A DNA stretch of 64,000 nt from Spirochaetales bacterium (GTDB taxonomy: Bacteria > Spirochaetota > Spirochaetia > SZUA-6 > RPPD01): positions 2,879 through 66,878 of the forward strand of contig JAFGGG010000003.1 in assembly GCA_016930675.1 (NCBI GenBank). The letters run 5' to 3'. Made by a program: the position numbers and the translations under genes. This document shows positions 8,505 to 53,872 of this stretch, one piece after another. The notes below the pieces were generated by a model, which was not told the origin of the DNA, ran no database searches, and saw only the letters and a list, made by a program, of their open reading frames with translations. Numbering within the stretch: position 1 is the first letter of the stretch; every line of letters starts with the position of its first letter.

Positions 8505-8505
8505 G

Positions 8506-18434: not shown

Positions 18435-19271
18435 ATGTTAGAACCTTTAGACGATTATTATGTGAATCTCTTCAGTACTCTCATCTATAATCAAAGCGGT
18501 ATTCACTTTTCCAAAAATAACAGATCAATCCTTGAGAACAGACTCCGTGAACGCTTAAAGGCAATGAAAATCGATAATATCCGCAGCTATTATGAGATTA
18601 TCATCAAAGATCCTGAAGAGATGAAAGTACTTCTTGATTCGGTTACGACAAATCTCACCCGCTTTTTCCGTAACACCGGTCATTTTCAAACTCTCGAACA
18701 CTATATCATTCCCAAGATTATTTCGTTTAAAAGAGAGAAGGGAATGAACCATATACGAGTGTGGAGTGCCGGCTGTGCGACCGGTGAAGAACCGTATTCC
18801 ATTGCCATGGTGCTTAAAGAGCACCTTCCACTTTCCTTTTCCGCAGAAATAGTTGCTTCCGATATTAGCCTGACATCCCTTTTAACAGCGCGTGAAGGTT
18901 TCTATAACGAGGCAAGGATTGGAGATGTTCCTCTGGCTTATCTAAAAAAATATTTCGAAAAAAAATCCGAAGGTTACAAAATACGCGAAGATCTGAAAAC
19001 AATGATCAAATTCGACTATCATAATTTAAAATATGAAAGCGGATCTAAAAACATCGATATTCTTTTTTGCCGTAATGTTATCATCTACTTTGATGAAACC
19101 GCTCAAAAAGCACTTATAAACCGTTTTTGGGACGCAATGGGTAGCTATTCCTTCCTCATCCTCGGACATTCGGAATCATTATTCGGAATGAAAACATCTT
19201 TTGAATTTGTAAAAACAGATTGGTCGTGTATCTATAAAAAATCATTGACTTTAGCGGAGCGAAAAATTTGA
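18435..19271 (+). CDS. cheR: chemotaxis protein methyltransferase
   Basis: It has TTNLTRFFRN and a SAM-binding block IRVWSAGCATGEEPYS. Confidence 0.92.
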   Translation: MLEPLDDYYVNLFSTLIYNQSGIHFSKNNRSILENRLRERLKAMKIDNIRSYYEIIIKDPEEMKVLLDSVTTNLTRFFRNTGHFQTLEHYIIPKIISFKREKGMNHIRVWSAGCATGEEPYSIAMVLKEHLPLSFSAEIVASDISLTSLLTAREGFYNEARIGDVPLAYLKKYFEKKSEGYKIREDLKTMIKFDYHNLKYESGSKNIDILFCRNVIIYFDETAQKALINRFWDAMGSYSFLILGHSESLFGMKTSFEFVKTDWSCIYKKSLTLAERKI

Positions 19272-20377
19272 GTGCTCGGATTTCTGTCCTCATAGTTGAT
19301 GACTCCTCTATAATGAGAAAAATGATTAGAACTATTTTTGAAAAAACTCCGGATATAACAGTAGCAGCCACAGCTATGAACGGAGAGTTTGCTCTCTATA
19401 AAATGAAAACATTGAAACCGGACGTTATTATTCTGGATATCCAAATGCCCCAAATGGACGGAATTGCTTTTTTACGTGAAAAGAAATCCTTACATAATTC
19501 AACTCCTGTTATCATTCTCTCTTCTATCGCACGACGCGGAGCGCATGAAACAATGGAAGCCTTGGCTTTGGGCGCTTCGGATTTTCTTTTAAAACCAAGC
19601 TCAGAAAACGACTACAATGTACAGCAGGTTGCAGATCAGCTTATCCAGCTGGTAAGAGCCTACAGCGGTAAAAAATCTTTCCATGAAACGGATACGGCTC
19701 TGAGGTACAAAAAATATGAGTGCCTGGAATATAAAACCCCCCAGAAGTATGCCTTAAAAAAAATGATCGTACCAAAAAGGCAGCCCGGAAAAATTGAGGT
19801 GGTTGCCATTGGAATTTCCACGGGAGGACCGAGTGCGCTGCGTGATATGTGTTCGAAATTAAAGGACACGCTTTCGGTACCCGTGCTCATAGTGCAGCAT
19901 ATGCCCCCCGGTTTTACCGAGGAATTTGCCTACAGCCTCAATAAGATCTGTGCGTTGGAGGTGAAGGAAGCGCATAACGGTGACATCATAAAAAAAGGCA
20001 GGGTTCTGCTTGCTCCGGGAACCGCTCATATGGAAGTTGTAAGCAAACCATTGGCAAAAGTTATCCAATTGAAAGATTCTGAACCTGTTAATGGTCATAA
20101 GCCTTCCGTAGGCGTACTTTTTTCTTCAATCGCAGCACAGTACGCAAATCGCAGTCTGGCCATAATAATGACCGGAATGGGAAAAGACGGAGCAAAAGAA
20201 ATAGGTTCGGTTTATATAGAAGGCGGATTCACAATTGCTCAAGATGCCGCATCCAGTGTTGTGTTCGGCATGCCAAAAGTTGCGATTGAGAACGGTTTTA
20301 TCCATAAGGTCGCTTGTCTGGAAGAAATTCCGAAAATCATCAACTCCTTAGAACGCGGGCCTATCCTCAATCATTGA
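19268..20377 (+). CDS. cheB: chemotaxis response regulator protein-glutamate methylesterase
   Basis: It has a receiver domain (VIILDIQMPQMDG) and a methylesterase domain (GISTGGPSAL, MTGMGKDGA). A TTG start overlaps the cheR stop. Confidence 0.92.
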   Translation: MSARISVLIVDDSSIMRKMIRTIFEKTPDITVAATAMNGEFALYKMKTLKPDVIILDIQMPQMDGIAFLREKKSLHNSTPVIILSSIARRGAHETMEALALGASDFLLKPSSENDYNVQQVADQLIQLVRAYSGKKSFHETDTALRYKKYECLEYKTPQKYALKKMIVPKRQPGKIEVVAIGISTGGPSALRDMCSKLKDTLSVPVLIVQHMPPGFTEEFAYSLNKICALEVKEAHNGDIIKKGRVLLAPGTAHMEVVSKPLAKVIQLKDSEPVNGHKPSVGVLFSSIAAQYANRSLAIIMTGMGKDGAKEIGSVYIEGGFTIAQDAASSVVFGMPKVAIENGFIHKVACLEEIPKIINSLERGPILNH

Positions 20378-24202: not shown

Positions 24203-25015
24203 ATGGGACCATTTATCGGAATCGGACTTGTTGCAGGTGCCATAGCCCTGTTCGTGGCATATTCTTTCCAGAGTAAAAAACTCTTTCAAATCAAGAGTAC
24301 CGAGACTTCACAGATTAATGAGTTGAAAGAAATTTCATCAGCTGTGGCCACAGATATCGGTGGGGGATCATTCAACCAGATAACCGAGGTAAAAGGAAAA
24401 GCGGTTTGTGATAATCCTCTTACCTCAGAACTGGCAAAAGCTAAGTGCGTTTATTATTCAATGAGTGTAACACGGGAATATGAGGAAACATACTGGGATA
24501 CGGACGCTAACGGTAACCGGATACAACAGACAAGAAGAGGATCGGATTCGGTAGCGCACAATACTCGTTCCACACCGTTTTATATTCAGGACGCGACGGG
24601 TAATATTAAAGTGAATCCGGACGGAGCATCATTTGTCACAGAAAAAGCATATTCCCGCTTTGAACCGGGTGAAGTACGCGGTACATCATTACGTATCGGA
24701 GGTCTCACGATTAATTTGGGCAGTATTACCCAGTCGTCCCAAAGACGTACCATCGGCTACCGCTATGAAGAAGAGATTATCCCTTTAAACCGTGTTTTAT
24801 ATGTACTGGGAGAAGCAGCCGACGCGAGTGGAGAACTCTGCATGCAGAAACCCGCAAAAAAAGGCAGTAAATTCATTATCAGTGTAAAAAGCGAAGAAGA
24901 ACTGATAAGAAGCGCAAAAGGTTCCATGACAGTTCTCTTGATTCTTTCCCTGATTGCAGGTATCGGTGGCATAACTCTGTTTTTTCTTTCGTTATTCAAT
25001 ATTATTAAGTTTTAA
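24203..25015 (+). CDS. two-TM membrane protein, GIDE-like (family call tentative)
   Basis: It has N- and C-terminal TM helices. The central pattern (EVKGKAVCDNPLTSELAKAKCVYY ... PFYIQDATGNIKVNPDGA) matches my recollection of bacterial GIDE (PF12483) proteins. A good RBS (GAAAGGAG) precedes the start. Confidence 0.5.
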   Translation: MGPFIGIGLVAGAIALFVAYSFQSKKLFQIKSTETSQINELKEISSAVATDIGGGSFNQITEVKGKAVCDNPLTSELAKAKCVYYSMSVTREYEETYWDTDANGNRIQQTRRGSDSVAHNTRSTPFYIQDATGNIKVNPDGASFVTEKAYSRFEPGEVRGTSLRIGGLTINLGSITQSSQRRTIGYRYEEEIIPLNRVLYVLGEAADASGELCMQKPAKKGSKFIISVKSEEELIRSAKGSMTVLLILSLIAGIGGITLFFLSLFNIIKF

Positions 25016-35823: not shown

Positions 35824-36276
35824 ATGAAAACCGTGTTTTTAGTTTTAACTCTCATTATTTTGCCCGGTTTGTTTTTACACGCCTCGCTTATAAAAGTAAC
35901 GGTCGATGCCGCCAGTCCCCCGGCCGGATTTAGCAGAATGTTTAGCCTAAATATAAAATACGAGAATAACCTGTGTCTTATAACCATAACATATGATCCA
36001 AAATTGAAAGAGAAAATTACTGAAAAACTTCCCGACGGTTCTTTTATAGAATACTATTCTGAGAGTGGCATTCAGTCATGTTACCTGTTGTTTTATAACG
36101 ATCAAAACTTCAACTTGCTAACGGCTCCCGTCTGTTTTACCGAATCAAATGCCGGACGCAACTCTGCCACCGTTACCATACAAAAAGATTTATTAAAGCA
36201 GTTAAGAATTCAGCTTTATATCCCTAATATAGTAGAGACATTCTGCTATGAACTGCTTTTTCTGAATGTGGATTAA
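35824..36276 (+). CDS. small secreted hypothetical protein
   Basis: It has a signal peptide (VFLVLTLIILPGLFLHA). No family was recognised. Confidence 0.5.
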   Translation: MKTVFLVLTLIILPGLFLHASLIKVTVDAASPPAGFSRMFSLNIKYENNLCLITITYDPKLKEKITEKLPDGSFIEYYSESGIQSCYLLFYNDQNFNLLTAPVCFTESNAGRNSATVTIQKDLLKQLRIQLYIPNIVETFCYELLFLNVD

Positions 36277-36366
36277 ACCAGCAGTGAAAACATTTTATGC
36301 ATAGTTAAAATTTTATTTTTGCATTACAATAATAATATATCTTCATTTTAAAAACGGAGGTGTATC

Positions 36367-38577
36367 ATGGAGTTTTTAAGCGATCTTAATGAATTTATTG
36401 AAGTACCTATACCTGACCAGGAAATTGAAAAAAACGACCAGGCTTTAAATATACTCGTAGATAACAGGACAGAACCCGATAATACCACAACAAAACCGCA
36501 TTTCAATCTGTCACGCCAGCATTTCAAGAACCTGCTTTCCGACCTTGATGCTGTTACCGCCCAATTGGACCGTATAAAACAGGCTGCAGAAAGCTATGCC
36601 AAGCAAAAAAATTCTGCCCATATCCAAACAGTAAAAAAGGCGTTGAATAAAATCCAGACCATATTCGAATACAATATCTATAGAACGGGCATGTCCGGTT
36701 CCTACTGGAGCAACCCTCTCTATGATTTCCGAGTATGGGCGGGTGAGAATATGGATCAGGGCGAGCGGATGCCCCTGGGTTACATGGATACAAAATCCGA
36801 CGGTCCGGATAAAATTTTCGTTATATTCCAGCAGCTGCAGGAAATGGACATAACCAAAACAAAGGACACCTGGGAGAGTGTATATGAGGATTTTTATGCA
36901 CTTATAACATTCGAGAAGGTTAGAATAAACTCCTATCTGCGCCGTATAGACTCTTTTGAAAAGTTCAATACGATTTTGGATCAGGGAGCAAGTTATTATG
37001 CGCTGAAATCTAAAATCTTCGACATACCGACCATGACTATGCAGGAAACAATGCTCAGCACGGCTGTCCGGTATATGTCGCTTTCAATAGAACTTTTAGA
37101 GGAAATCAAGTCCGCAGCCAAGGAGAATCTGAAAGCACTCCCCGATAAAAAGGCAGCAGAAGCCCTGGCATTTCACACGGAACAGCTGATTGATGAGGTT
37201 AACAGGCTGGCTTCCCACGGTCATTTCAACGGCATGTCGCTTCTTACCGGCAGATTCAGCAGGAATCATGAACAGGCCACGTCATCCATGTATATTTTAT
37301 TGGGAGCGGAGATGTCCGAAAGCACACGTGTATATATACCCACACTTACCGCAGTAAGTCTGGTAGTCCCCGGCAACATGGCTCAACCATGGAAATGGGA
37401 TGTCTACGAGGCTTTTACGTCAGAACAGAAAACTAATCAGTTTATTGCCGCATTGGATACCTCAATCGGGAAGATAAAACAAAGCATGCAGAATCTTGAC
37501 CAACTGGCAAAAAAACTGCCGGAGCATGATCCCTATTCCAAGCTGAGCTTCGATTCCATGTACCAGGAAAGCATGCAGTATTTTTTAAAGTCATATTCTC
37601 TTACCATTAAAAATCTTGCATACACTGCCCAACCCGAACATTCAATAAATACTCAAAGCACACTTGTCCTGTTAACGTTAAGGAATGCCCATGAACTGAT
37701 TACTGAGAAGCTGATTAACATGCGGGAACTGGCCGTACAGGCGTGTAATTCCGTGTACAATGATCAGGAGCACATGAAATTAAACGATGAATTTGCAGCT
37801 CTTATTAAAAGCATCGAGAAAATAACCGAACAAACGGTTTTTAACGGTGAAAAAATACTGCATACAGACAGTACACTCTCTTCCGACCGCAGCATCAAAC
37901 TGGATCTGGTATGTGACGAAGACGGTATTATTCAAAAGCAGCTCCTGCTTTTTCCCCTTGATCCTAAAGCATTGGAACTATCCCGCTCCAATTATTTTTT
38001 AGAGATAAATCGTGTAGATGAAGCAAACAGAGCTATTGGAATTCTGGACTGGGCACTGGCCAAAGTGAATTCCAACAAAGCAAGGATCGGCTCCTGTTTA
38101 CAAAGCGTTTTCATCGCGGAGTACAAAGATTCTCTTATGCGGGACTATATCAAGCTATTGACGAGTGCCCCCAAAAAGAATAACTCGGCGGCGACATATC
38201 TGGAATATCTTGGTAATTTGGTAGATTTTACCAAACACGTATATAAAAAAGCCGAAGAGTACGCCTGGATGGCCATGAGCGGTGTATATACCTATAACGA
38301 CAGAGAACAGATGGCGTTTTATTTCAGCAATCTATTGCATGACGTACAAACCCTTATTAAGCACGCACAAACGCTGTCAGAAGCACTGCCTCAGGATATC
38401 ACATTCAATAACCAGCAAAAAACCAAGCTTTCCGCTCTCGTAAAATATCTGGCGAAAATTGGAGCTGAAACCTCAAACTTCATGGAAGAAATCAAAAACA
38501 GCGACTTCTTACGCTCAATAGGCTCAGCCAGAAACGTGTTTGAAAAAATCACTTGGATAATATCGATTAAGGAGTGA
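36367..38577 (+). CDS. multi-module flagellin-like protein (non-canonical)
   Basis: It has an RBS GGAGG. The clearest flagellin-type stretches are MRELAVQACNSVYNDQEHMKLNDEFAALIKSIEKITEQTVFNGEKIL (ND1-like) and AIGILDWALAKVNSNKARIGSCLQSV (CD1-like). Weaker copies occur elsewhere in the protein. It lacks the canonical MIINHN-type N-terminus. Confidence 0.55.
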   Translation: MEFLSDLNEFIEVPIPDQEIEKNDQALNILVDNRTEPDNTTTKPHFNLSRQHFKNLLSDLDAVTAQLDRIKQAAESYAKQKNSAHIQTVKKALNKIQTIFEYNIYRTGMSGSYWSNPLYDFRVWAGENMDQGERMPLGYMDTKSDGPDKIFVIFQQLQEMDITKTKDTWESVYEDFYALITFEKVRINSYLRRIDSFEKFNTILDQGASYYALKSKIFDIPTMTMQETMLSTAVRYMSLSIELLEEIKSAAKENLKALPDKKAAEALAFHTEQLIDEVNRLASHGHFNGMSLLTGRFSRNHEQATSSMYILLGAEMSESTRVYIPTLTAVSLVVPGNMAQPWKWDVYEAFTSEQKTNQFIAALDTSIGKIKQSMQNLDQLAKKLPEHDPYSKLSFDSMYQESMQYFLKSYSLTIKNLAYTAQPEHSINTQSTLVLLTLRNAHELITEKLINMRELAVQACNSVYNDQEHMKLNDEFAALIKSIEKITEQTVFNGEKILHTDSTLSSDRSIKLDLVCDEDGIIQKQLLLFPLDPKALELSRSNYFLEINRVDEANRAIGILDWALAKVNSNKARIGSCLQSVFIAEYKDSLMRDYIKLLTSAPKKNNSAATYLEYLGNLVDFTKHVYKKAEEYAWMAMSGVYTYNDREQMAFYFSNLLHDVQTLIKHAQTLSEALPQDITFNNQQKTKLSALVKYLAKIGAETSNFMEEIKNSDFLRSIGSARNVFEKITWIISIKE

Positions 38578-39428
38578 GCATGCATTCAAACTCCATCGGT
38601 TTTAGGGCCGTACATGACAATCTTTCATCCATACCCTTGCCTGACTCCATAGCCGATGTTCAAAGAATGAAAGGAATACAACTGGCACTCACTGCCATTG
38701 GGCGAACCGTTACCGGTATTGAAAAGCTGCTGTACCAGAGTGTCTATGAAAACGAAGATAGACTGTTTATCACACACAGTATCAAGCGCGAGCAGAAGTG
38801 GATGAGAAAAATCCTTAAAACAGTCAAAATCAAAAACAGATACCCGCTGTTAGGTGATCGGTTTATACTAAACATGGCTAGTTCCGCAGTGTTGGAACTA
38901 TCACTTGAGAAACTTGCATGTGCTAAAATCAGCTTGAATCCAGAAAACACAAGCCTGTTTTTACTACTGGATATGTTACGCGAGTTCAAACAAAAACTGC
39001 AGTATAATGCTGAAGTTATTTACATCTCCTTAATGTTATATAAATCAGATTATGCTCTCTCCGACCAAAAATACAGCACAAATTCACAAAAGCAGCGCGG
39101 TATTGAGCGGCTTGTTTTTTATGAACTGTTCACTCTGGTCAGAAGATACTGTACACGATTAACGAGCAGCTTATTGCCGGCCGATTTAAAGAGTCTCTAT
39201 TTGAGGCTGTTTGTTTTGTTACTGAAAGCTATCAAACGCTTGCATACTGCATATCCAATTGCAATACCGTCACAAGCGCACAATGATCTGCTTTCAATTA
39301 TTGATGCGGTTCTGCGCGCAGAGTATGATCAGATAGGAACAAATACACTGTATGCGCTGCGCAGCTTAATGAATAAAATACTTAACAATCCTCACTGTCT
39401 GATTCCGGGGGCGTGCGCTTTTGGTTAG
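38574..39428 (+). CDS. hypothetical protein with flagellin-like termini
   Basis: Its ATGA start overlaps the upstream stop. The start MSMHSNSIGFRAVHDNL resembles a flagellin D0 start, and the C-terminal EYDQIGTNTLYALRSLMNKI is weakly CD0/CD1-like. Confidence 0.45.
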   Translation: MSMHSNSIGFRAVHDNLSSIPLPDSIADVQRMKGIQLALTAIGRTVTGIEKLLYQSVYENEDRLFITHSIKREQKWMRKILKTVKIKNRYPLLGDRFILNMASSAVLELSLEKLACAKISLNPENTSLFLLLDMLREFKQKLQYNAEVIYISLMLYKSDYALSDQKYSTNSQKQRGIERLVFYELFTLVRRYCTRLTSSLLPADLKSLYLRLFVLLLKAIKRLHTAYPIAIPSQAHNDLLSIIDAVLRAEYDQIGTNTLYALRSLMNKILNNPHCLIPGACAFG

Positions 39429-39657
39429 GAGGCTTTTTTTTATCGGATTCGGTGTATTTACCCTTATTTGCTGCATGTTCATCTTTATATATGGCGCATA
39501 CTCAGGTCTGATTTTTCTTCCTTTAGGGCTTTCTCTCTTGATAACCGGAATTAAACTGCAATGTAGTCCCCAGGCGCGAACCAGAAAAGCACTTCTGAAA
39601 AAAATTGCCCTGCTTATGAAAGGTAAGAGTGACGCTTATATTGAGACACACAGGTAA
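39421..39657 (+). CDS. small two-TM membrane protein
   Basis: 78 aa, with a TTG start overlapping the upstream gene by 8 nt. It has two hydrophobic helices and no clear RBS. Confidence 0.35.
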   Translation: MVRRLFFIGFGVFTLICCMFIFIYGAYSGLIFLPLGLSLLITGIKLQCSPQARTRKALLKKIALLMKGKSDAYIETHR

Positions 39658-40350: not shown

Positions 40351-40635
40351 ATGATGAACCAGAGTCAAAAACAAGAGGTGCTGGAAAGACTTAAAAAAAT
40401 AGCCGGCCAAATCGGGGGGATACAAAAAATGGTGTCCGAAAACAGGTACTGCATAGACATTCTCACCCAGACCAGAGCCAGCGCGGCCGCCATTAACAAA
40501 GTTGAAGATCTGATTATGTATCAGCATCTGCACACCTGTGTGGCGGAGAGCATGAAAAGCGATGACCCCGAAGACAAAAACCAGAAGATATCCGAAATTA
40601 TAGGTATTTTCTCCAAGTTCAGAAAGGCGGGGTAA
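40351..40635 (+). CDS. csoR: CsoR/RcnR family metal-sensing repressor
   Basis: It has LERLKKIAGQIGGIQKMVSENRYCIDILTQ and HLHTC, giving the C-H-C ligand pattern. Confidence 0.88.
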   Translation: MMNQSQKQEVLERLKKIAGQIGGIQKMVSENRYCIDILTQTRASAAAINKVEDLIMYQHLHTCVAESMKSDDPEDKNQKISEIIGIFSKFRKAG

Positions 40636-40701
40636 ATATCACCCGCATACAAAAAAGAGAAGGGTGGAGGGTCGGAAATAAAAAATTTGCGGAGGTAAAA
40701 A

Positions 40702-41370
40702 ATGAAAAAAACATTATGTAATATGTTTGCTTTGAGTATGTTTATCATGTTCGTTGCCATGCCGCTTGCGGCGCATGACGGCGAAACAGATAAAAGCATA
40801 GAAGACCTTATGGCATCAATCCGCGAGGAGCAGGGTGTAAGCGAGAACCAGGCAATAGATCCTGATAAAGTAAATGAAGACCTGCTGGAAGAACTGGGCG
40901 ATGCCGTGATGAGTCTGAATCATCCGGATGAAAGAGAGCACGAGTGGATGGACGAGATGATGGGAGGAGAAGACTCCGAAAGCCTGCGCGCCATGCATAG
41001 AGCAATGGGCTACAGGTATCTGAAAAGCGGAGATCGTTACGGCACCCCGTTTCGCAGGCCTGGCATGAGAGGTCCCGGATTCTATGGCCCGGGCATGATG
41101 AGAGGATGGGGCAGGCCTATGATGAATTATAATGGCGACCATCCGCATTGGGGGAGAATGGGCAGGGGCCCATTCGCTTTCATGCCTTGGGGAGGAGTTG
41201 TCTTTTGGATAGTTGTCATTATTCTTTTCGGAGGAGTTATAACCGGAGTAGTAATAATTATAAAAAAGCAAAAATCAACCCCGGGACCGCTTGATATCTT
41301 AAAGGTAAGATTGGCAAAGGGAGAAATAACCTCACAAGAGTTTGAAAAATTAAAACAGTGTATTCAGTAG
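40702..41370 (+). CDS. Met/His/Gly-rich membrane-anchored protein with C-terminal SHOCT-like domain
   Basis: From N- to C-terminus it has a signal peptide, an acidic His/Met segment (HPDEREHEWMDEMMGG), a low-complexity GPGMMRGWGRPMM..HPHW stretch, a TM helix, and LKVRLAKGEITSQEFEKLK (SHOCT-like). Confidence 0.6.
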   Translation: MKKTLCNMFALSMFIMFVAMPLAAHDGETDKSIEDLMASIREEQGVSENQAIDPDKVNEDLLEELGDAVMSLNHPDEREHEWMDEMMGGEDSESLRAMHRAMGYRYLKSGDRYGTPFRRPGMRGPGFYGPGMMRGWGRPMMNYNGDHPHWGRMGRGPFAFMPWGGVVFWIVVIILFGGVITGVVIIIKKQKSTPGPLDILKVRLAKGEITSQEFEKLKQCIQ

Positions 41371-41379
41371 GAGGTTGGT

Positions 41380-41538
41380 ATGAAAAAATTTTTTAAGAGG
41401 ATAGGTAAAAAATTAAACGCTTACTTCGAACGTTTGGCAGAATCAAACAATAAGCTTTACGGCAATAAACGTTTGGACTGTTGTGATATGAATAACAAAC
41501 AGAGCAAAATCACGCACCAGTACACGAAGGAGGTGTAA
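41380..41538 (+). CDS. small ORF (52 aa) with a CC motif, below the ORF-track length cutoff
   Basis: An RBS GGAGG lies 6 nt upstream. It encodes MKKFFKRIGKKLNAYFERLAESNNKLYGNKRLDCCDMNNKQSKITHQYTKEV. Its stop is 1 nt before the copZ ATG. Confidence 0.35.
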   Translation: MKKFFKRIGKKLNAYFERLAESNNKLYGNKRLDCCDMNNKQSKITHQYTKEV

Positions 41539-41539
41539 T

Positions 41540-41743
41540 ATGAACAACACAATCACGCTAAAAATAAAGGGTATGGCCTGCCATTCCTGCGCGCAGAGAA
41601 TACAACAGGCGCTTATGGCGGATCAGGATGTAAAAGCCGCTGATGTAAATTTAGCAAAGAAAAAGGCAGTAATTACGACCGGCTCCAAAGATAAAGCGCA
41701 TTTCATTAAAATTATTCAAGACACAGGATATGACGCGGCCTAG
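41540..41743 (+). CDS. copZ: copper chaperone CopZ (HMA domain)
   Basis: 67 aa with GMACHSCAQRI (the MxCxxC motif). Confidence 0.88.
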   Translation: MNNTITLKIKGMACHSCAQRIQQALMADQDVKAADVNLAKKKAVITTGSKDKAHFIKIIQDTGYDAA

Positions 41744-41782
41744 CGGTTCTCAACACCTGCCGCCCTGCAGAGAGACAAGACT

Positions 41783-44047
41783 ATGAGTAAAGTGAAAACA
41801 GCGGAACAGCGAACACATACACAAAGCGAATATACCGAGTATTCGGTACAGGGCATGTCCTGCTCCTCCTGCGCCCTCACGGTTGAAAAAACATTAAAGC
41901 ATATTCCGGGTGTGACAAATGCACATGTAAGTTTTGCTGACAAAAAAGCCCGCATAACATATCTCAGAGATAAAACAGACACCAGACTTTTTAAGAAAAA
42001 AGTAAAACAGGCAGGATACAGTCTGGAAAACATCAGAGACAGGGTGCGGCAGGAAGCAGCTCATGTGCGTAAAGAAAAGGTACGCTTATTGTGGGCCTGG
42101 GCGCTGACAGTACCGCTCACCGTTAAGATGCTCGGAGAAATGTTCTTCGGTTTCTTTATCGCGAAACCACCGTTTCCGCTCATCCTTGATCTCATTATCG
42201 CTTTCCCGGTAATTTTCATCATCGGTTTTCCGGTTATCAGAGCGACCATATTTTCTTTTAGAACTGTATCTTTTAACATGGACTCGCTTATCGGAATCGG
42301 TACCATAGCCGCCTTCAGTACCGGCATCCTCAGACTTACCGGATTAGAGATTGAAAGTTTCGCGGCAGTGGGCGCCATGATAATGTCCATCAACTTCATT
42401 GGCAACTACCTGAAAGAGATGGCTACGGGCAGGGCTTCCCGGGCCATAAAACAGTTATTGGAACTGGGCGCTAAGAGCGCGCATCTTATCGTAAAAAACG
42501 GCAGCACCCGCGAGGTTCCGGTGGAGTCCTTAAAAATAGGGGACCTGGTTCTGGTTAAGCCGGGCGAGAAAATACCCGTGGACGGAGTAATAGTGGAAGG
42601 GGAAAGCTCGGTGAATGAAGCGATTGCCACGGGCGAATCCGTTCCTGTTGATAAATTCCCCGGCCATAAGGTAATCGGAGCAACGGTAAACGGGCAGGGC
42701 GCTTTAAAGGTCCGGATAGAAAAGATCGGCAAAGAGACATTTTTAGCCCAGATCATCCGGATGGTGGAGCAGGCCCAAAGCTCTAAGATTCCCATCCAAA
42801 CCTTTGTCGACAGGATTACCGCGGTTTTCGTGCCCGTTATCCTTGCTATCGCCATGGGAACTTTCGTCTTCTGGCTGGTATTTCCCGAAACAGGAAAAGC
42901 CATAATAAGCCTGTTTACGCCCATCCTGCCCTGGTTAACCTTGAAAACAAGTCTGGTTTCTCTGGCCCTGTTTGCGGCTATTGCCACCATAGTCATTGCC
43001 TGTCCCTGCGCACTGGGTTTGGCCACGCCCACTGCGCTTATGGTGGGAATGGGCAAAGGCGCGATCAATGGAATACTGATCAGGAACGGAGAAGCCATTC
43101 AGACAGCTCAGAAGATAGATACGGTAGTATTCGACAAAACCGGCACCATCACCAGCGGTAAACCCGGCGTTGTTGATTTCAAGACAAGTTATGACTCAAA
43201 ACAATTTTTACGTTTGGCCGCTTCTGTGGAATCACTTTCGGAGCACCCTTTGGCCGCGGCTGTTGTTTCCTATGCCAAACAACAGCATGTTACTCTTATA
43301 AAACCGGCAAAATTCACTTCACTTACAGGTAAAGGCATCACAGCCTCACTGAATAATAAGAAATACACGGCGGGAAGCAAAAAATATTTCACGGAGCTTG
43401 ACATCCGGGTTACTCAGTTCCAGGCTGAGATAAATACATACCAGGGAAAAGGATACACGGTAATAATCTTTGCGGAAGGCAAAAAAGCCATCGGCATCAT
43501 AGCTGTCACCGATACCATAAAACCCGATTCCAAGCAGGCTTTGGAAAAACTGCATAACCTCGGTATCCAAACGGTTATGCTGACAGGGGACAATAAAAAA
43601 TCAGCCGTCTCAATCGCCGCTAACGTCGGGATCGACAGAGTACACGCGGAACTGCTGCCGCGGGATAAGATTACCATGATTAAGAGGATGCAAAAGCGGG
43701 GCCGTACGGTGGCCATGGTGGGTGACGGCATCAACGACGCGCCCGCCTTAAAACAGGCCGATGTGGGAATCGCCATAGGCACGGGAACGGATATCGCCAT
43801 TGAAGCAGCGGATATCACTCTTGTGGGCGGAAGTCTTGAAGGAGTGGTCAGGGCGATCAAACTCTCCAAAGCCACGTTTAGAAAAATTATCCAGAACCTT
43901 TTTTGGGCTTTTTTCTATAATGTAATAGCCATTCCCCTGGCTGTACTGGGTTTACTCCATCCGGCCATAGCCGAGGCGGCCATGGCATTGAGTTCAATCA
44001 ATGTGGTGAGTAATTCACTGCGATTAAAAAGAGTCGGCATCGATTAG
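41783..44047 (+). CDS. copA: copper-translocating P1B-type ATPase
   Basis: It has an N-terminal HMA domain (GMSCSSCA), CPC in a TM helix, DKTGTIT, and GDGINDAP. Confidence 0.95.
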
Positions 44048-45050: not shown

Positions 45051-48000
45051 TTACGGTGTAAGCAGTCCGGGGAAGCGGGCTTCCAGGCCGAGTTTGATCG
45101 ATAATTGACCATAACTTAATTCTTTCAATAATCCGCTTTCTTCATATGTACCCTGATAATTGGCTGCCAGGAAAAATCGTAACGTATCCACAGCATATTC
45201 AAGTATTAAGTCTCCTTCGATTTTTAGAAAATCCATCTGTTCACCGGGCCATGCATATTCACTATAAGGGCCGCCCTGTACCTGCACGGTAATCCCTATG
45301 ATATGTCCTTCAGCCACAGGAAAATAAAGTGCAGCAGCCAATCCTCCGAAAAATTGATACTTGTTTTGGGGTTTGTAATAAATGCCCTCTCCTGCGACAT
45401 CATCCGTGCTGTCCTGATACCAGGCCTGGCCCAGAAGGGTCATCTCAAGGGAAACCGGATACTCCAGCTGCAGGAAGGTCATATCCAGGTATCCGGCGGC
45501 TTCATAGATGATATTATCATCATCAAGCATCTCTCCTTTGCCGTACAGCCTGATTTTGGTGCCTTTTATAACAGGGATATCGATAAAGCTGAACTTCAGT
45601 GTCAGGTTGAGTTCTCCCCACAACTCATACACATTTTCTAAAAAGTAAGCGTATGTTTCGTGGTAGCGTTCATAACCTCCTCTTAAAGAAGCTGTTAAAA
45701 TACCCGTTTCCCACAAGGCAGCTTCAAGATATAGATACGGTTCAGGAACATCCAAATATGCGAAAATCGACTCCGGGGAATATGCTTCTTCACTAAAGTC
45801 ACTTTTACGCATAAGGTCATAAAATTCATCCATCATTAAAATTCTTACTCCCACATAAGGTGTCAGCCTTAACCCCCAGTCAATATAATAAAATGACACC
45901 CCCAGCTTTATATCATGATAATTATACGTAAACGGTTCAGCCGCGGTCGACCATTCCTTGTAATATGTGTAATAATCGATATCATATCCGGCCCTGAAGG
46001 CCCACATGGTGCTGAGAGGAGCTGTGTAGTCCAAATCGCTTTCCAGCTCTATAACCCCTGCCGTATCCATAATATAATTCGAACTATATTGAACCAGGGG
46101 TGAGTTTTGCCGCGCCAGATCGTTATAGAAAGCCATGGTGCGCTCATACGCAGGATCATTATCATACACACGCTTAAAATGATCCATGGCAGCGCTCCAG
46201 TCGCCTTTCCAGCGGTAGACCAGTCCCAGCTGATAGATAGCACCCATATCATTGGGATCCATGGCCAGCACCTGTTCAAACTGACGGATGGCCGCATTAA
46301 GGTTTTCTTCTTCCAGATAGAATTTACCCAATTCGTTTCTCAGCAGGTAGGTATTCTGCTGGTTGTAAAAGAAGGTCCTGACCAGCCTCTGGGAATAGAG
46401 TTCAAGCAGCTGATCGATTGTCTGCTCCACAACCTGCTTGTTGCCCTGGGCTTCGGAAACAATACCCGCAAACTTGGTTGCCAAGTTAGCCAGTTCCTGC
46501 TCGTAATCATCGCTTACACTGCCGGTATACTGACTTACGGCTGCGTATTTTAACAAAAACCGCTTGACTTCACCGGCGTGAGCCGCGTATTCACTGATAG
46601 TCCCCAGCTCCTTGTCCAGAAAGGCAAGCGCGTCCTTGCCTTTTCCCTGCCAGATCAGCGTCTCCACATAGAGGTATTTGCTTTCAGCCGGAAGGGTCGG
46701 TATGTTCTTTATATCATCCTTTATCTGATTTTCAGCATCCGCCAACCGTTTTTCCGACTGAGCCAGCTTGGCCAGAATGTGCTCCGCCAAAAACAGCTTT
46801 TCCGCTTCAAGCTCCCTGAGTTCTGCAACAACAAAGGCTTCATTCCACTGCCAGGTAGTCGTCTCTTTTACCTTTTCGAAGGTCTCATTCTCTTTTTCTT
46901 CAGTGCCTTCAATCGTACCCACTCTGGTCTTTAATGCGTCAACCTCACTTACCGCTTCCGTATACCTTTCAAAATAGGCATAACCCTCCTTTATCTTTTC
47001 TTTTATCAAATTTTGATCTTCAACCACTTTACCGCTTAACTCCTGCTTCTCTTTTTGCAGTTTAGCCAAGTTTGCTTCGGCTTCGGCGATCGATTCCTTA
47101 ATCTTGGCATCCTGTGCTTCATCACCTGTCAATGAGCTTTTTAATGTTGCGATAATATTCTCACTAAGTTCGATATCTTTCAGTACTGTTTCATATTGTG
47201 CGCGGGAACGTTTGACAAGAGCCAATTGGTTATCTACCTCCCTTTTCTTATCAGCAGCCACATTGGGTATATTGTGAAAATAAGTATACAGAATATAGAG
47301 CTTGTCCAGTGTTTCCAGTATGGAAAAGGCTCTGGCATCCGACAGTTTGATTTCTCTGTACGTATGATTGGTAAGTATATTCAGATACTCCTTGACCGCC
47401 TCTCTTGTTAAACCGTTCCAAAACAGGGTCTGCGCCAATAGTTCACGCAGATCCAGGTTGTCCGGATTGCGTTCCAGTTCTTTTCTGTATTCCTGCAGCA
47501 GAGCTTCCCTCATCCCCTGTTTCTCTTTCTGTATTGACAGGTAGGCGTTCAGTTTTTCCGATTCGTAAAATCTTGCTTTGATTTTTTTGTTAAGAGCTTC
47601 CGCCTGCTCCTGCTGGCCGGTTTTATTGTATACCTCCTGCTGCAAAATATAATACTCAAGATATTCCGGGAACTGAGTCTGCATATTCTCATACACGGCC
47701 GCCGCCCGCAGCGGATAACCGTTTACAACATACTCCGCTGCCAGTTCACCCAGCTTTAATCTATCCCCTTTAGCGCTCTCGATTACCTGATTGTATATTC
47801 CTTCGGCTTCTCTCACCTCGCTTGCCCATTCCAGCGTAATTCCCCAATTAAGTTTAAGACCCAAATCATCGGGATAATGCTCCAATCCCTGGCGAAAGAA
47901 TTCCACCGCTTCTCTGTAGCGGCCCGTCCATGCCGCCACCTTTCCCGCCTCCAGCCATACTTCATAGCGTTTGGGATCCAGCGCTAAAAGTTCTTTGTAG

Positions 48001-48923
48001 TATTTTAATCCGCCCTCGACATCTCCGTCCCAAATGGTATTCTTGGCAATGAGCAGCATTATATCCAGGTTGTCGCGATCAATTGCCTGAGCCCTTTTTA
48101 GATATTTCAGCGCGTCGAGATAATTACTCAAAAGTGAGTATACCATCGATACTTCGATGTAAGGTCTCACATCATTAGGATTTCGATTTATTCTCTTTAT
48201 ATATTCCTCAATAGCTAAAAACGGTTTATTGATACTTCTGTTATCCATATTCTTGGGAAACACTTCAGGAACCGGGGTTCCTATGGAACGGCTTCTGCCC
48301 ACTTTTCGCACAAAGAAAAAACAGTCCAGATAAAAATAATATCTTCCGTCATATTTACGTTTTTCTTTTACTTCGAACCTGATTTTGTGTTTACCCCTGC
48401 CTAATGACACATCACCGACTAAATTCCAGTAATAGGAGGGTGTGTACTGTTCCACTACCACCATGCGCCTGCGGTATACATCGATGGCGCGTCCGTCATC
48501 AATAATATAGCTGAAGGGCGAAGAATACGATTCCAAATCCTCTCCCTGAGGCCCTGCCGGAGTGCCTCCGTACCACAGCTCAAAAGTGCCCGGTTCCTCG
48601 ACATAAAATAAAAAATCAGCATAAAAAGCCGCGCCGCCCTGTAAGCCCGTGGCCCTGCTTAACTGCAGGGTCTGTTTACCTGAGCAGCCGAAATTCTTAA
48701 TGGATTCCTTGAAAAAATTGGTGGCTACCGCGTTTTCACCCTCGATAAAGATAATGTTTTTGTTCTCATCGGGGAAAACCGGATCCACTTTCCCTTCCGC
48801 TGGTTTTTCCTCTCCTGCCCCTTCATCAGGGGCTACGGATTCATCCTCCTGAGCGAATACAGGCACAACACACATAATAATCAGCAGGAGAACGCATAAT
48901 TTCATAATAATTTTCTTTGGCAT
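45051..48923 (-). CDS. large secreted TPR-repeat protein with an N-terminal beta-sandwich-like domain and a Tyr-rich C-terminal region
   Basis: It has a signal peptide (LCVLLLIIMCVVPVFAQ), many TPR-like repeats, a central coiled coil (EAEANLAKLQKEKQEL), and about 330 C-terminal residues with an alternating aromatic pattern. Confidence 0.7.
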   Translation of the reverse strand: MPKKIIMKLCVLLLIIMCVVPVFAQEDESVAPDEGAGEEKPAEGKVDPVFPDENKNIIFIEGENAVATNFFKESIKNFGCSGKQTLQLSRATGLQGGAAFYADFLFYVEEPGTFELWYGGTPAGPQGEDLESYSSPFSYIIDDGRAIDVYRRRMVVVEQYTPSYYWNLVGDVSLGRGKHKIRFEVKEKRKYDGRYYFYLDCFFFVRKVGRSRSIGTPVPEVFPKNMDNRSINKPFLAIEEYIKRINRNPNDVRPYIEVSMVYSLLSNYLDALKYLKRAQAIDRDNLDIMLLIAKNTIWDGDVEGGLKYYKELLALDPKRYEVWLEAGKVAAWTGRYREAVEFFRQGLEHYPDDLGLKLNWGITLEWASEVREAEGIYNQVIESAKGDRLKLGELAAEYVVNGYPLRAAAVYENMQTQFPEYLEYYILQQEVYNKTGQQEQAEALNKKIKARFYESEKLNAYLSIQKEKQGMREALLQEYRKELERNPDNLDLRELLAQTLFWNGLTREAVKEYLNILTNHTYREIKLSDARAFSILETLDKLYILYTYFHNIPNVAADKKREVDNQLALVKRSRAQYETVLKDIELSENIIATLKSSLTGDEAQDAKIKESIAEAEANLAKLQKEKQELSGKVVEDQNLIKEKIKEGYAYFERYTEAVSEVDALKTRVGTIEGTEEKENETFEKVKETTTWQWNEAFVVAELRELEAEKLFLAEHILAKLAQSEKRLADAENQIKDDIKNIPTLPAESKYLYVETLIWQGKGKDALAFLDKELGTISEYAAHAGEVKRFLLKYAAVSQYTGSVSDDYEQELANLATKFAGIVSEAQGNKQVVEQTIDQLLELYSQRLVRTFFYNQQNTYLLRNELGKFYLEEENLNAAIRQFEQVLAMDPNDMGAIYQLGLVYRWKGDWSAAMDHFKRVYDNDPAYERTMAFYNDLARQNSPLVQYSSNYIMDTAGVIELESDLDYTAPLSTMWAFRAGYDIDYYTYYKEWSTAAEPFTYNYHDIKLGVSFYYIDWGLRLTPYVGVRILMMDEFYDLMRKSDFSEEAYSPESIFAYLDVPEPYLYLEAALWETGILTASLRGGYERYHETYAYFLENVYELWGELNLTLKFSFIDIPVIKGTKIRLYGKGEMLDDDNIIYEAAGYLDMTFLQLEYPVSLEMTLLGQAWYQDSTDDVAGEGIYYKPQNKYQFFGGLAAALYFPVAEGHIIGITVQVQGGPYSEYAWPGEQMDFLKIEGDLILEYAVDTLRFFLAANYQGTYEESGLLKELSYGQLSIKLGLEARFPGLLTP

Positions 48924-50956: not shown

Positions 50957-53872
50957 TTATGAGCTCCTCATCTTGTCTAATATGGAATCAATCTTTAAAG
51001 CTATAACATTCCCCATATCTTTATCCGGCATATATGACGAAAGGTTTTTTATAAAGCTAAACGTAGAACTAATGGCATTTGTCGTTAATTCAGGTCCTAT
51101 TGGTTTTACGTAATCTTGAAACCGTTCATGTATCTTTCTTATTAACCCTTTGTTGCCAGAAAGCTTAGCCCGTAAATACTGCATTTTCATATGCATTTCA
51201 GACTCTAACAAATTAAATCGTCTATCTTGTGGTAAATAATTTGCCATATTCGTTAAATAGTCAAGAAGTTTTCCCGGTTGTTTATTTCTAAATCGCTCCT
51301 TTTTGGAAAAAAAATCAGCGTGCTCGGAGGCTTTTTGCCTTACATGTTCATAATCATCCTCCCCGGAATCGGACGTAACATAGTTTTCTTCCAATAGCTC
51401 GGGTTGCTCTTCGAGGATAAGTTCCTCATCTTCAGGAGTTTTGCTTTCTGCTGCCACATCATCCTCGAATAGTGCGTCCTCCTCCTGTTCCAGCAGCTCT
51501 ACTGCCGGCTCCTCATCAATCCTGCCTAATGACTCCTCTTCGTTAATTTCAGGTTCGAGCTCCTGTTCTTCCTGTTCTGTTCCCAGAATTACAGGTTCTT
51601 CTTCGTCTTCCTCTGTAAAGCGCGCGACTCCTGCCTCGCCCTCATCCGCTCCCTGTTCCCGCTTAGGTTCCCTGTACGATATTTCAACAGGAAGCGGAGT
51701 TTGAGGAACCGCAATATATTGTGGTGTAACCTGCGGGATTACAATAGGAGAAGGAGCAGCCGTTTGTTGGTGTGCTCCGGCCTGCATATTCGCTACATTT
51801 TGCTGGAGAGCTCTGGTGGCAGCATCCATTGCACTTCTTATTTCATTTTTAAGATCTTTAAGCTCATCCTTATAAGAAGGGCTTTCCCCGGACAGCTGTG
51901 CGGACACCGGTTTTCCTGCCGGCTCTTCTCTGTTATAAGCCGGTGGCGCGGGAGAAGTCTCCGGTAACGGAGTGTAAGACGGCGAAGCTCCTGCCGGAGG
52001 CGGAGGATAAGCCGCCCTTTGCGGAGGAATATAAGGACTCTCTTTATAAAGCTCCTGCCCTTCCAGCAGGTTCATAAGAGAGGGAGCCTTTTCTTCTCTT
52101 ACCTCAATAATTCTACGCTCTTCTACTTGGGGAAGAGCTTCGTCACTTTCTTCTAAAGTTATCTCTGCTTCTTCTTCTCTGACAGCTAAAACAGGTTCCA
52201 TGCCGCCTACTTTAATAATAGGTACGGATTCTTCTTCGGCCAACTCTTGTTCATTGAACAAAAACGCGTCTTCATCTTCCGCCTGCTGCTTTTCAAAATC
52301 AGCCGCGAGTTCTCTGTATTTTATAAGATTCTTCTGCCACTGCTCATCATGTTCTCTTTCATACTCCTTTATTGTCTCTTCATAGAGTTTAAGTGACTCA
52401 TTTAATTTATCCATCTCATTGATTTCTTCACTGGAACCTTGTTTTTCCACAATTTCTTTCAGGACTGCAACGGCTTTCTTATGGTCCCCCAGCTCTCTGT
52501 AAACTTTAGCCAATAAATAATATGCTTCTTCATAAAGAACACTGCTTTTAATAAGTCTGATAAGAGTTTCTTCCGCATTTCTAAGATTGCCCTGCCTATG
52601 ATAAAGATCCGCTAAAAGAATTTCAGCCTTCCCGTCTCCCGGATTATGCTCTAAATAGATTTTTACTTCCTGGAGAGCCTTTTTAAACTCACCTTTATCT
52701 TTCCAGATAAAAGCCAGGTCCAGATGAAATCCCAGGTTCTTTTGCCCCTGCTCCCAAAGCCGATTCTGTATTTCATATGCTTTGTCGATTTTATCTTGTT
52801 TTAGATATACATTGGTCAGCGCTTTTAAACTATCCGTATCCTTTGCATCACGAGTTAAAACCTGCTTGAAACAATGTTCCGCCTCTTCATATCGGCCTAA
52901 GATCATAAGAATAGATCCTTCGCGGTAGAGTACTTGATAATCTTCCGGATCAATTTTTTTTATTTTTTCCAATTGCTCTAGTGCTTCATTATGAAGTCCT
53001 TGTTCCGCATATAATAATGCCAGATTAAAATGAGCCCGACCATACTGCGGATTATGCTGAATGGCCCTTTTAAAGGAAGTAACCGCCTCATCAAAATGTT
53101 TTTGTTTATGTAACAATACGGCAATATTATTATGTACTTCCGCATTCTGAGGTTGGCTCTTTAAAATATCCTGAAAAATCTGCAAAGCACGCTCATATTC
53201 ACCAAGCTCCTGGTAAATAACTCCCAAATTATTCATGGCTTGAATCCAACCGTGCTTTATGCGACAGGCATATTCGAACTCATCCTTTGCCTGTTTATAA
53301 AATCCCTTTTGTTTGAAGATGACACCCAGATTATAGTGCAAACTCGGATGATTAATATCAATTTGCAGCCCCTGCTGGTATACCTTGATAGCCTCATCAA
53401 AATGACCTGATTTTTCCAGAACCGTACCCAAATTATTATACGCCAATATATAGTGCGGATTTAATTCCAATGCCTGTCTGTAATACTTGACGGCCTGAGG
53501 ATACTCACTCTTATCCCTATGGAGATTACCTAAATTATAATAGATGTCCACTTTGTTGCGGGCAACATGCAAGGCCTTTTGCAAAATCGTATATGCCTTT
53601 TCAATTTCCCCTGAGTTTTTATAAGCCACTCCCAAATTATTATACGCTTCGCTGTTATCCGGTTTTAATTCTATGGCCTTATGAAAAATCTCTATGGCCT
53701 CTTTATATTTACCCTTACGCTCGTAGATACTGCCTAAAACATTATAAATATTATGTAAATGCGGTTTTTCTAAGACTATCTTTTCTAACAGTTTTTCCGC
53801 GAGATCATATTCCCCCATGAGAAAACTAGTGCGAGCTCGAGCTAATCTCTCATCGAGGGTCATTGTTTTCAT
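50957..53872 (-). CDS. TPR-repeat protein with a long acidic/Pro-rich C-terminal half
   Basis: About 13 consecutive TPR units (AYNNLG.., YYNLG..) are followed by low-complexity E/P/A-rich sequence. Confidence 0.8.
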   Translation of the reverse strand: MKTMTLDERLARARTSFLMGEYDLAEKLLEKIVLEKPHLHNIYNVLGSIYERKGKYKEAIEIFHKAIELKPDNSEAYNNLGVAYKNSGEIEKAYTILQKALHVARNKVDIYYNLGNLHRDKSEYPQAVKYYRQALELNPHYILAYNNLGTVLEKSGHFDEAIKVYQQGLQIDINHPSLHYNLGVIFKQKGFYKQAKDEFEYACRIKHGWIQAMNNLGVIYQELGEYERALQIFQDILKSQPQNAEVHNNIAVLLHKQKHFDEAVTSFKRAIQHNPQYGRAHFNLALLYAEQGLHNEALEQLEKIKKIDPEDYQVLYREGSILMILGRYEEAEHCFKQVLTRDAKDTDSLKALTNVYLKQDKIDKAYEIQNRLWEQGQKNLGFHLDLAFIWKDKGEFKKALQEVKIYLEHNPGDGKAEILLADLYHRQGNLRNAEETLIRLIKSSVLYEEAYYLLAKVYRELGDHKKAVAVLKEIVEKQGSSEEINEMDKLNESLKLYEETIKEYEREHDEQWQKNLIKYRELAADFEKQQAEDEDAFLFNEQELAEEESVPIIKVGGMEPVLAVREEEAEITLEESDEALPQVEERRIIEVREEKAPSLMNLLEGQELYKESPYIPPQRAAYPPPPAGASPSYTPLPETSPAPPAYNREEPAGKPVSAQLSGESPSYKDELKDLKNEIRSAMDAATRALQQNVANMQAGAHQQTAAPSPIVIPQVTPQYIAVPQTPLPVEISYREPKREQGADEGEAGVARFTEEDEEEPVILGTEQEEQELEPEINEEESLGRIDEEPAVELLEQEEDALFEDDVAAESKTPEDEELILEEQPELLEENYVTSDSGEDDYEHVRQKASEHADFFSKKERFRNKQPGKLLDYLTNMANYLPQDRRFNLLESEMHMKMQYLRAKLSGNKGLIRKIHERFQDYVKPIGPELTTNAISSTFSFIKNLSSYMPDKDMGNVIALKIDSILDKMRSS

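Follow-up and report, generated by a model that had tools for sequence, protein, structure and literature searches.

A rare spirochaete three-gene unit encodes a protein of four tandem flagellin D1 cores without D0

The window analysed here is a stretch of 64,000 nucleotides (nt) from a Spirochaetales bacterium (GCA_016930675.1, contig JAFGGG010000003.1, positions 2,879-66,878, forward strand). A preliminary description, made from the letters alone, had singled out four open reading frames (ORFs) on the + strand as an operon of divergent, multi-module flagellin-like proteins, and all four lie where it placed them. We find that the largest ORF, referred to below as the large gene, encodes four tandem copies of the flagellin D1 core and neither of the D0 segments. 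It heads a conserved unit of three genes, the others encoding a helical partner protein and a peptide with two transmembrane (TM) helices. The features of the locus, with protein lengths in amino acids (aa), are the following.

35824..36276, + strand: 150-aa ORF, Cys-containing, with a signal-peptide-like N-terminus
36320..36360, + strand: putative -10 box TG-n-TACAAT (36320-36330) and Shine-Dalgarno GGAGG (36356-36360) of the large gene
36367..38577, + strand: large gene, 736-aa tetra-D1 flagellin-derived protein without N-terminal or C-terminal D0 (from Pfam, PDB profile and Foldseek searches)
38580..39428, + strand: partner gene, 282 aa from ATG 38580 (from homologue lengths and the junction)
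39421..39657, + strand: gene for the 78-aa two-TM peptide, TTG start

The large, partner and peptide genes are translationally coupled. The stop codon of the large gene (38575-38577) lies in the junction AAGGAG-TGA-GC-ATG. A mechanical call of the partner ORF (38574-39428) yields 284 aa from a GTG that overlaps the large gene as GTGA. However, since homologues are 275-284 aa long, the window partner is catalogued as 282 aa and ATG 38580 sits 5 nt past a perfect AAGGAG, this ATG is almost certainly the start. It leaves a gap of 2 nt after the large gene, and the ATGA overlap described previously does not exist. The 8-nt overlap described between the partner gene (stop at 39426-39428) and the peptide gene (TTG at 39421) is correct and is seen identically in relatives. 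Upstream, the N-terminus of the 150-aa ORF agrees with the small secreted protein proposed there.

The resemblance of the 736-aa protein to flagellins is real and well beyond chance. Pfam Flagellin_N matches it with 47.2 bits (gathering cutoff 26.6) in two stretches, the best at aa 439-500, and these matches span only profile positions 75-136 of 139. More than 20 NCBIfam flagellin models match locally with expectation (E) values down to 9e-15, all far under their full-length cutoffs. When a profile of five close family members was searched against the PDB, spirochaete FlaB chains were retrieved at E=4.9e-25 through three separate stretches; query residues 271-332 align with residues 114-177 of a Treponema denticola-type FlaB (61 bits over 62 residues). 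An AlphaFold2 model of the protein was compared with the PDB by Foldseek. The top matches are all flagellins (Leptospira FlaB, Caulobacter FljK and others), and the best local fit is to D1 of Bacillus cereus flagellin (5z7q; TM-score 0.66, root-mean-square deviation (rmsd) 4.2 Å, 27% identity). Profile and structure checks thus bear out the flagellin core signatures that had been read by eye in this ORF.

The modules were mapped with hhalign, comparing a profile of nine family members with nine FlaB-type flagellins. Reversed-profile controls for these alignments gave E values of 0.14-0.65.

36544..36954, + strand: module A, aa 60-196, aligned to FlaB 80-228 (probability 82%, E 1e-5)
37051..37521, + strand: module B, aa 229-385, aligned to FlaB 72-227 (probability 99%, E 2e-20)
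37666..38097, + strand: module C, aa 434-577, aligned to FlaB 72-222 (probability 99%, E 7e-21)
38149..38370, + strand: module D, aa 595-668, aligned to FlaB 56-129 (probability 85%, E 6e-6)

All four modules are in register with FlaB D1. The predicted secondary structure runs helix, helix, hairpin, long helix four times over, with the hairpin missing in module D. As to architecture alone, we are highly confident that the product consists of four tandem flagellin D1 cores, each built of N-terminal D1 (ND1) helices, surface loops or a beta-hairpin, and a C-terminal D1 (CD1) helix. Every ND1-like and CD1-like stretch named in the preliminary description falls within module B, C or D. Its proposal of tandem modules in one polypeptide therefore stands, but it had overlooked a fourth, module A.

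Module A is degenerate. Its hairpin AGENMDQGE resembles GANMDQRE of FlaB, and its CD1 motif YLRRID resembles YQNRLE. Independent confirmation comes from a family of shorter proteins with two D1 modules (the di-D1 family, described below), which is collinear with aa 39-391 of the large protein (hhalign probability 99.7%, E 1e-26, 327 columns) and whose first module is FlaB-like (E 2e-18). Module B, with the stretch DEVNRLASHGHFNGMSLLTGRF, is the copy nearest to spirochaete FlaB. Module C is a complete D1 copy (MRELAVQACNSVYNDQEH...FNGEKIL, hairpin, EANRAIGILDWAL) and is the region of the AlphaFold2 model that superposes on D1 of the B. cereus flagellin. Module D is an ND1-type helix pair without the hairpin (SGVYTYNDREQM), after which C-terminal helices run to aa 736. 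The modules are also recognisably related to each other, with hhalign E values of 3e-8 for B against C and 3.5e-5 for C against D. Ahead of module A, the N-terminal 45 residues are predicted to be disordered yet are conserved.

Neither D0 segment was detected. No hhalign alignment covers FlaB residues 1-55, all starting at residue 56 or later, in agreement with the earlier remark that a canonical flagellin N-terminus is lacking; the N-terminus of the large protein, MEFLSDLNEF..., is unrelated to the MxINxN start of flagellins. At the other end there is no PF00700 Flagellin_C match at E<=10, and the strong alignments stop at FlaB residue ~222-228. In every flagellar axial polymer the inner tube is made of D0, which also contains the determinants of flagellin export and FliS binding. 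Because both D0 segments are missing, the large protein is excluded as a subunit of the filament, junction or cap.

The family is very rare. Among 1.84 billion representatives it amounts to about nine clusters, every one of them from metagenome-assembled genomes (MAGs) or metagenomes of Spirochaetia. Where sources are named, they are MAGs of 'uncultured Spirochaetaceae', 'Spirochaetales bacterium' and 'Spirochaetia bacterium'. A word-indexed search of 5.8 billion proteins returned five members only, full length and at 42-100% identity, with full-length homologues of the large protein being 42-66% identical. An exhaustive HMMER search of the 1.84 billion representatives added distant full-length or partial members (P0006, P0007, P0008, P0009, P0015 and P0026), beyond which the list passes into ~4,000 ordinary flagellins. 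In both searches the family was absent from cultivated model spirochaetes. The closest relative (66% identity) also carries a half-length extra copy of 366 aa, with modules A and B only, directly 3′ of the two-TM gene. It is one ORF in locus L001 (3373-4473) and two called genes in L002 (13309-13815 and 13873-14409), and the window has none. This copy could be a decaying duplicate or a di-D1-like paralogue.

Twenty residues are invariant in 9/9 divergent members, and these are FlaB signature positions. In module A they are G126, D130, Q131 and E133 of the hairpin, followed by L157, W169 and R193, the last in CD1. Module B contributes D276, E277, R280, A282, S283, H284, F287, G289, G295 and L332, and module C N554, G558 and D561 at the start of CD1. 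The resulting signatures are G.NMDQ.E, DE..R.ASH..F.G and AN..IG..D, and the spirochaete-specific ones include ASH, TGRF and NMDQ. In the structure of T. denticola FlaB1, S126 and T137 are O-glycosylated and D162 contacts the sheath protein FlaA (PMC13439194). S126 corresponds to S283 (kept in 9/9) and T137 to T294 (8/9) of module B, and D162 corresponds to D130 in the NMDQ motif of module A (9/9). The product of the large gene derives from spirochaete-type FlaB.

Three genes form the conserved unit. The large gene is accompanied by a helical partner of 220-282 aa, encoded separately or apparently fused to the C-terminus of the large protein, and by a two-TM peptide of 71-78 aa. The large gene, a 274-282-aa gene and a 78-aa gene are kept as a block in L002-L005, L006 and L008. 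In the distant L007 the same order recurs with genes of 220 aa and 72 aa in a wholly different neighbourhood (TonB/ExbBD, HisG). Two loci have no separate partner gene. In L011 a large protein of 844 aa is followed directly by a 71-aa peptide, and in L010 one of 896 aa is followed after 10 nt by an ORF that the gene caller missed (~5094-5312, MVKKVTTVVV...LMKGRRF) and that encodes a two-TM peptide. A resemblance to the N-terminus of the partner is seen at residues 705-757 of P0015 (E 0.009) and, more weakly, in P0009 (E 0.22). This suggests that the partner may be fused to the large protein in the two long versions, and hence a physical link between the two proteins. Beside the two-TM gene of L011 lies a gene for a 154-aa protein (12614-13078) that matches PF22551 TY-Chap1, a type III secretion system (T3SS)/YbjN chaperone family, at E 1.4e-4 and 22 bits against a cutoff of 27.

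The tight gene coupling noted before is thus kept in five divergent lineages. Of the proposed four-gene operon, the three-gene core is conserved, whereas the 150-aa gene is kept only in close relatives and is preceded by a promoter-like box of its own. Ahead of the large gene, the window, L002, L008, L007 and L011 share a conserved TG-n-TACAAT/TATAAT box, and the 150-aa gene carries a separate TGCTATAAT box. Given these two boxes, the transcription unit most likely comprises the three genes, which would lie behind a sigma70-like promoter; a generic promoter scan gave nothing above shuffles. Motif inspection of the loci revealed no convincing sigma28 or sigma54 motif upstream of the large gene. 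Control by the flagellar regulon through these factors was rejected, the TACAAT/TATAAT box being conserved instead.

The 150-aa gene adjoins the locus in the window, L002-L004 and L008 despite differing upstream genes, and in L007 an unrelated 80-aa gene stands in its place. Only 6 proteins of this kind occur in the 5.8 billion, and no Pfam or PDB match was found. It is a clade-restricted orphan and probably a separate transcription unit. Identity with a known sheath-associated (FlaAP-like) protein was rejected, since the relatives number only 6 and the PDB offered no match, the best hit being a malaria antigen without relation to it at E=1.

The partner has no match in Pfam, NCBIfam, PDB, PHROG or PADLOC. 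Where it is separate, it is always encoded directly downstream of the large gene. Its AlphaFold2 model (predicted local distance difference test (pLDDT) 72, predicted TM-score 0.73) is all-helical with one beta-hairpin and D1-like in topology: helix 25-56, helix 61-84, hairpin 94-108, helix 126-164 and then four more helices. Flagellins recur among the top Foldseek matches (3v47_D, probability 0.90, rmsd 2.8 Å, 91 columns), with no E below 0.84. By hhalign, the partner profile against FlaB, each D1 module, the di-D1 family and the Tat-like partner of that family gave E 0.1-0.3, the same as the reversed control. The partner had been described as beginning like a flagellin and as carrying only flagellin termini. 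That start is not conserved among homologues, and the termini-only assignment was rejected, since profile comparisons are no better than the control, the PDB profile search was empty and the enrichment of flagellins at the fold level is non-significant. From its predicted model, the partner may be a degenerate fifth D1 module.

The 78-aa peptide has a basic N-terminus (+2), two TM helices joined by a loop of charge 0, and a basic tail (+7) with ...LMKGKSD.... An equivalent peptide of 71-78 aa follows the locus in 5/5 lineages with a common layout, the tail often containing LMKG. Two TM helices and a basic C-terminal tail fit holin-like proteins generally. No holin match was found in Pfam, NCBIfam or PHROG, the best hit being phrog_2531 (function unassigned) at E 0.065.

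Further D0-less proteins with several D1 modules were found. The di-D1 family (P0035, P0043, P0045, P0061, P0067, P0070, P0101, P0121 and P0131) consists of proteins of ~340-360 aa with the N-terminus MKIxxNPL and two FlaB-like modules (L012 6700-9068; L017 6664-9026; L013, L014, L018). Its gene is always preceded, with a 4-nt overlap, by a gene for a 434-447-aa protein whose N-terminus is Tat-like (ITRRELLERSGAALG / IPRKAFLQAGLTLAALAA) and whose C-terminal part is a D1 module (hhalign against FlaB, probability 97%, E 3.5e-11); the pair is not found in flagellar loci. The di-D1 proteins are collinear with modules A and B of the window protein, likewise lack the C-terminal D0 and likewise lie outside flagellar loci. 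However, they are half its length and have an upstream Tat-like D1-bearing partner and no two-TM peptide, whereas the accessory set of the window locus is the downstream 282-aa partner and the two-TM peptide, with no upstream Tat-like partner. In P0120 (L015 8001-10214, 737 aa) three Flagellin_N stretches are combined with a signal of lipoprotein type, ...IMFSSC. Sec-type signals occur in P0145 (460 aa) and P0112 (599 aa), which contain 2-3 D1 modules. P0082 is grouped with the other multi-D1 proteins bearing export signals. These D0-less sister families with export signals suggest a hidden layer of flagellin-derived accessory proteins.

The closest characterised relative of the large protein is FlaB, and its closest architectural relatives are the di-D1 proteins. 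Each module resembles D1 (residues 56/72-228) of spirochaete FlaB (T. denticola FlaB1, Leptospira FlaB; PDB 9pim, 9lrz, 6pwb), module B carries a 22-residue spirochaete-specific motif almost verbatim, and FlaB filaments come first in the fold search. However, the window protein has 736 rather than ~285 aa, four D1, no D0 and no MIINHN start; its gene stands outside flagellar loci behind the putative sigma70-like promoter, and the product cannot enter the filament core. FlgL (hook-associated protein 3) belongs to the same superfamily and shares the D1 helical bundle, with fragments 2d4x and 3pwx low in the fold-search list, but it has D0 at both ends and a single D1. Campylobacter FlaC is a flagellin homologue that is reported to have a non-motility role (PMC4863622). 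The Sphingomonas cell-surface flagellin homologues p5/p6 (PDB 2zbi and 3k8v, by title) appear in our PDB and fold-search lists. As in the window protein, the flagellin fold serves in these for something other than propeller building; unlike the D0-less tandem array with its membrane-peptide partner, they are single-copy flagellins. FlaC and the Sphingomonas homologues keep the D0 termini and are exported through the flagellar system. To our knowledge, every characterised member of the flagellin superfamily has D0 at both ends and one D1, and our literature search found no description of tandem-D1 or D0-less flagellin-like proteins. The fold itself is known; what is new is that it occurs here in several copies, without D0 and with accessory genes of its own, and the D1 bundle is thereby seen to be reusable as a stand-alone module.

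We hypothesise that the locus encodes a membrane-tethered, non-polymerising mimic of FlaB D1, or docking platform, that tunes flagellar assembly; for this statement as a whole we would put the probability at about 0.4. The three proteins would form a complex attached to the inner membrane from the cytoplasmic side, with the peptide as anchor. We place the complex there because inspection of the sequences revealed no Sec or Tat signal in any of the three products and because both ends of the peptide are basic around a neutral loop, so that both should face the cytoplasm. It would display a non-polymerisable array of FlaB-like D1 surfaces, and the array would bind FlaB itself or else a chaperone, or a component of the glycosylation or export machinery, by which D1 of FlaB is recognised ahead of export. 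Such binding would tune assembly of the periplasmic flagellum, the complex itself being no part of the filament. The retention of FlaB-specific residues argues for constraint by a partner that recognises FlaB. Borrelia FliS still binds FlaB lacking the C-terminal D0, apparently through D1 (PMC12327847). The large protein has no sequence relationship that we could find to HP1076 of Helicobacter pylori, which is small and single-domain and offers an analogy of mechanism only. HP1076, a FliS co-chaperone, is a cytoplasmic accessory in flagellin-FliS export and has a flagellin- or hook-associated-like helical fold. Should the large protein turn out to bind FlaB, or factors that handle FlaB, periplasmic flagella would have a new regulator or structural adaptor.

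Several points weigh against this hypothesis. The classical FliS site, in the C-terminal D0, is absent from the large protein. The Asn that is critical for FliW binding (N287 of Borrelia burgdorferi (Bb) FlaB) aligns with the invariant Tyr594, and a FliW sponge was rejected on these grounds. The AlphaFold2 model of the large protein is mediocre (pLDDT 58). In the close clade the locus is linked to the gene of a Sec-type secreted protein, the one of 150 aa, and other D0-less multi-D1 families bear Sec, Tat-like or lipoprotein signals; together these hint at periplasmic roles for such modules. Moreover, the FlaB positions that are retained are found on the outer face of D1, towards the sheath, which fits a periplasmic partner at least equally well.

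The last three of these points speak for a different location. It is possible, and nearly as likely as the cytoplasmic mimic, that the large protein is a periplasmic accessory of the periplasmic flagella, acting as a lattice staple, sheath adaptor or multi-subunit tether. It would dock on the FlaB core or sheath proteins by D1-D1-type or D1-sheath contacts, and could reach the periplasm through the flagellar type III system by way of its N-terminal 45 residues, or with the two-TM peptide acting in a holin-like manner. The residues retained in the sheath-facing loops include D130 (equivalent to D162, 9/9) and the glycosylation positions S126/T137. The disordered yet conserved N-terminus would suit such a route, as would the weakly T3SS/YbjN chaperone-like product of the L011 adjacent gene, which is under its cutoff, and the general holin-like layout of the peptide. 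However, there is no signal peptide and no D0 with its export signal and FliS site, the peptide matches no holin profile, no sigma28 promoter was seen and flagellar genes are not nearby. Moreover, neither the proteome of purified T. denticola flagella nor the structures contain such a protein, and the family is absent from cultivated model spirochaetes.

Less probable is a non-flagellar scaffold, in which the D1 three-helix bundle has been reused as a rod, cytoskeletal or envelope element anchored by the peptide and with no tie to flagella. In no lineage is the locus part of a flagellar one, its neighbourhoods are unrelated from lineage to lineage and its promoter is of housekeeping type; the modules of the protein are covalently chained and without D0. 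The Sphingomonas homologues (2zbi, 3k8v) and Campylobacter FlaC, for which a role outside motility is reported (PMC4863622), are precedents. Against a scaffold, the invariant residues are FlaB signatures, including ASH, TGRF and NMDQ, where a mere scaffold would be expected to drift, and the family occurs only in Spirochaetia, whose flagella are internal. If nothing related to FlaB is bound, the large protein would be a new case of the flagellin fold in another use.

We think it rather unlikely, although worth stating, that the tetra-D1 protein and the wider set of D0-less multi-D1 proteins are an unrecognised class of covalently linked protofilament mimics. These would reach the periplasm by non-flagellar routes (the holin-like peptide here; Tat-like, Sec or lipoprotein signals in the sister families), and there, on the periplasmic flagella or next to them, they would build or organise a structure. 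Were this true, they would amount either to a structural part of spirochaete motility not recognised before or to a non-flagellar filament of a new kind. The window family occurs in spirochaetes. Their flagella are internal, and the make-up of sheath and core is still under study.

An ordinary but divergent flagellin or hook-associated protein (FlgL/FlgK) is very improbable. The Pfam Flagellin_N match would favour it, as would the Joint Genome Institute (JGI) label 'flagellin-like hook-associated protein FlgL' on P0003, P0004, P0005 and P0015. However, the protein is without D0 at either end, has no Flagellin_C match and has four D1 rather than one. The full-length NCBIfam flagellin models failed, the best scoring 54.6 bits against a cutoff of 443 (cutoffs across the models are 282-983), and so did those for FlgL (TIGR02550, 14.4 bits against 127.2; NF005187, 20 against 337). 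Ordinary flagellin and FlgL were ruled out on these grounds. The mismatch with the architecture of flagellin, FlgL, FlgK and FliD that had been pointed out previously accordingly holds. NCBI calls the relatives hypothetical proteins. The JGI name is probably a generic orthologous-group label rather than a specific assignment, and such an automated 'FlgL' label on the proteins of this family is misleading. Finally, chance resemblance or a functionless, decaying pseudogene, for which one might cite the truncated or split extra copy downstream in the closest relative, is effectively refuted by conservation, with statistics far beyond chance, an intact 736-aa frame and 42-66% identity in several lineages with the accessory genes alongside.

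Two other origins were considered. A phage or defence origin was rejected, the PHROGs match being only the flagellin-like phrog_16088 and PADLOC giving no match for any of the four proteins at E<=0.1. The cytoplasmic filament protein CfpA of Treponema is of similar size to the large protein. There was no CfpA-named entry in the NCBIfam scan or in the table of named homologues, a check by name that is blind to distant kinship, and the literature search gave no link between the two.

The surroundings of the locus agree with the preliminary description in that the neighbours are nitroreductases, a CsoR-type repressor and a Cu-ATPase. Its placement outside any flagellar locus also holds, there being no flagellar structural gene in the whole window and unrelated neighbourhoods in every lineage. 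The window does encode the chemotaxis proteins CheR and CheB (18435-20377) and the sigma-54 factor RpoN (12626-14035), and therefore the host is likely motile and uses sigma-54 regulation. An NtrC-type response regulator and a HAMP histidine kinase are encoded at 7134-10302. Downstream of the peptide gene is a copper/metal homeostasis cluster (40351-44047). It comprises the CsoR-type repressor (40351-40635), a 222-aa His/Met/Gly-rich protein with a signal-like N-terminus and a SHOCT domain at its end (40702-41370), a 67-aa ORF that by eye is metallochaperone-like with a CxxC motif (41540-41743) and the P-type ATPase (41783-44047). Two very large TPR-repeat proteins are encoded on the minus strand at 45051-48923 (1290 aa) and 50957-53872 (971 aa), in a cluster that also holds HDOD-domain, metallo-beta-lactamase-fold and Laminin_G_3 proteins. 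Lastly, a 270-aa protein encoded at 24203-25015 contains the Pfam GIDE (E3 ubiquitin ligase) domain (E 1.7e-36).

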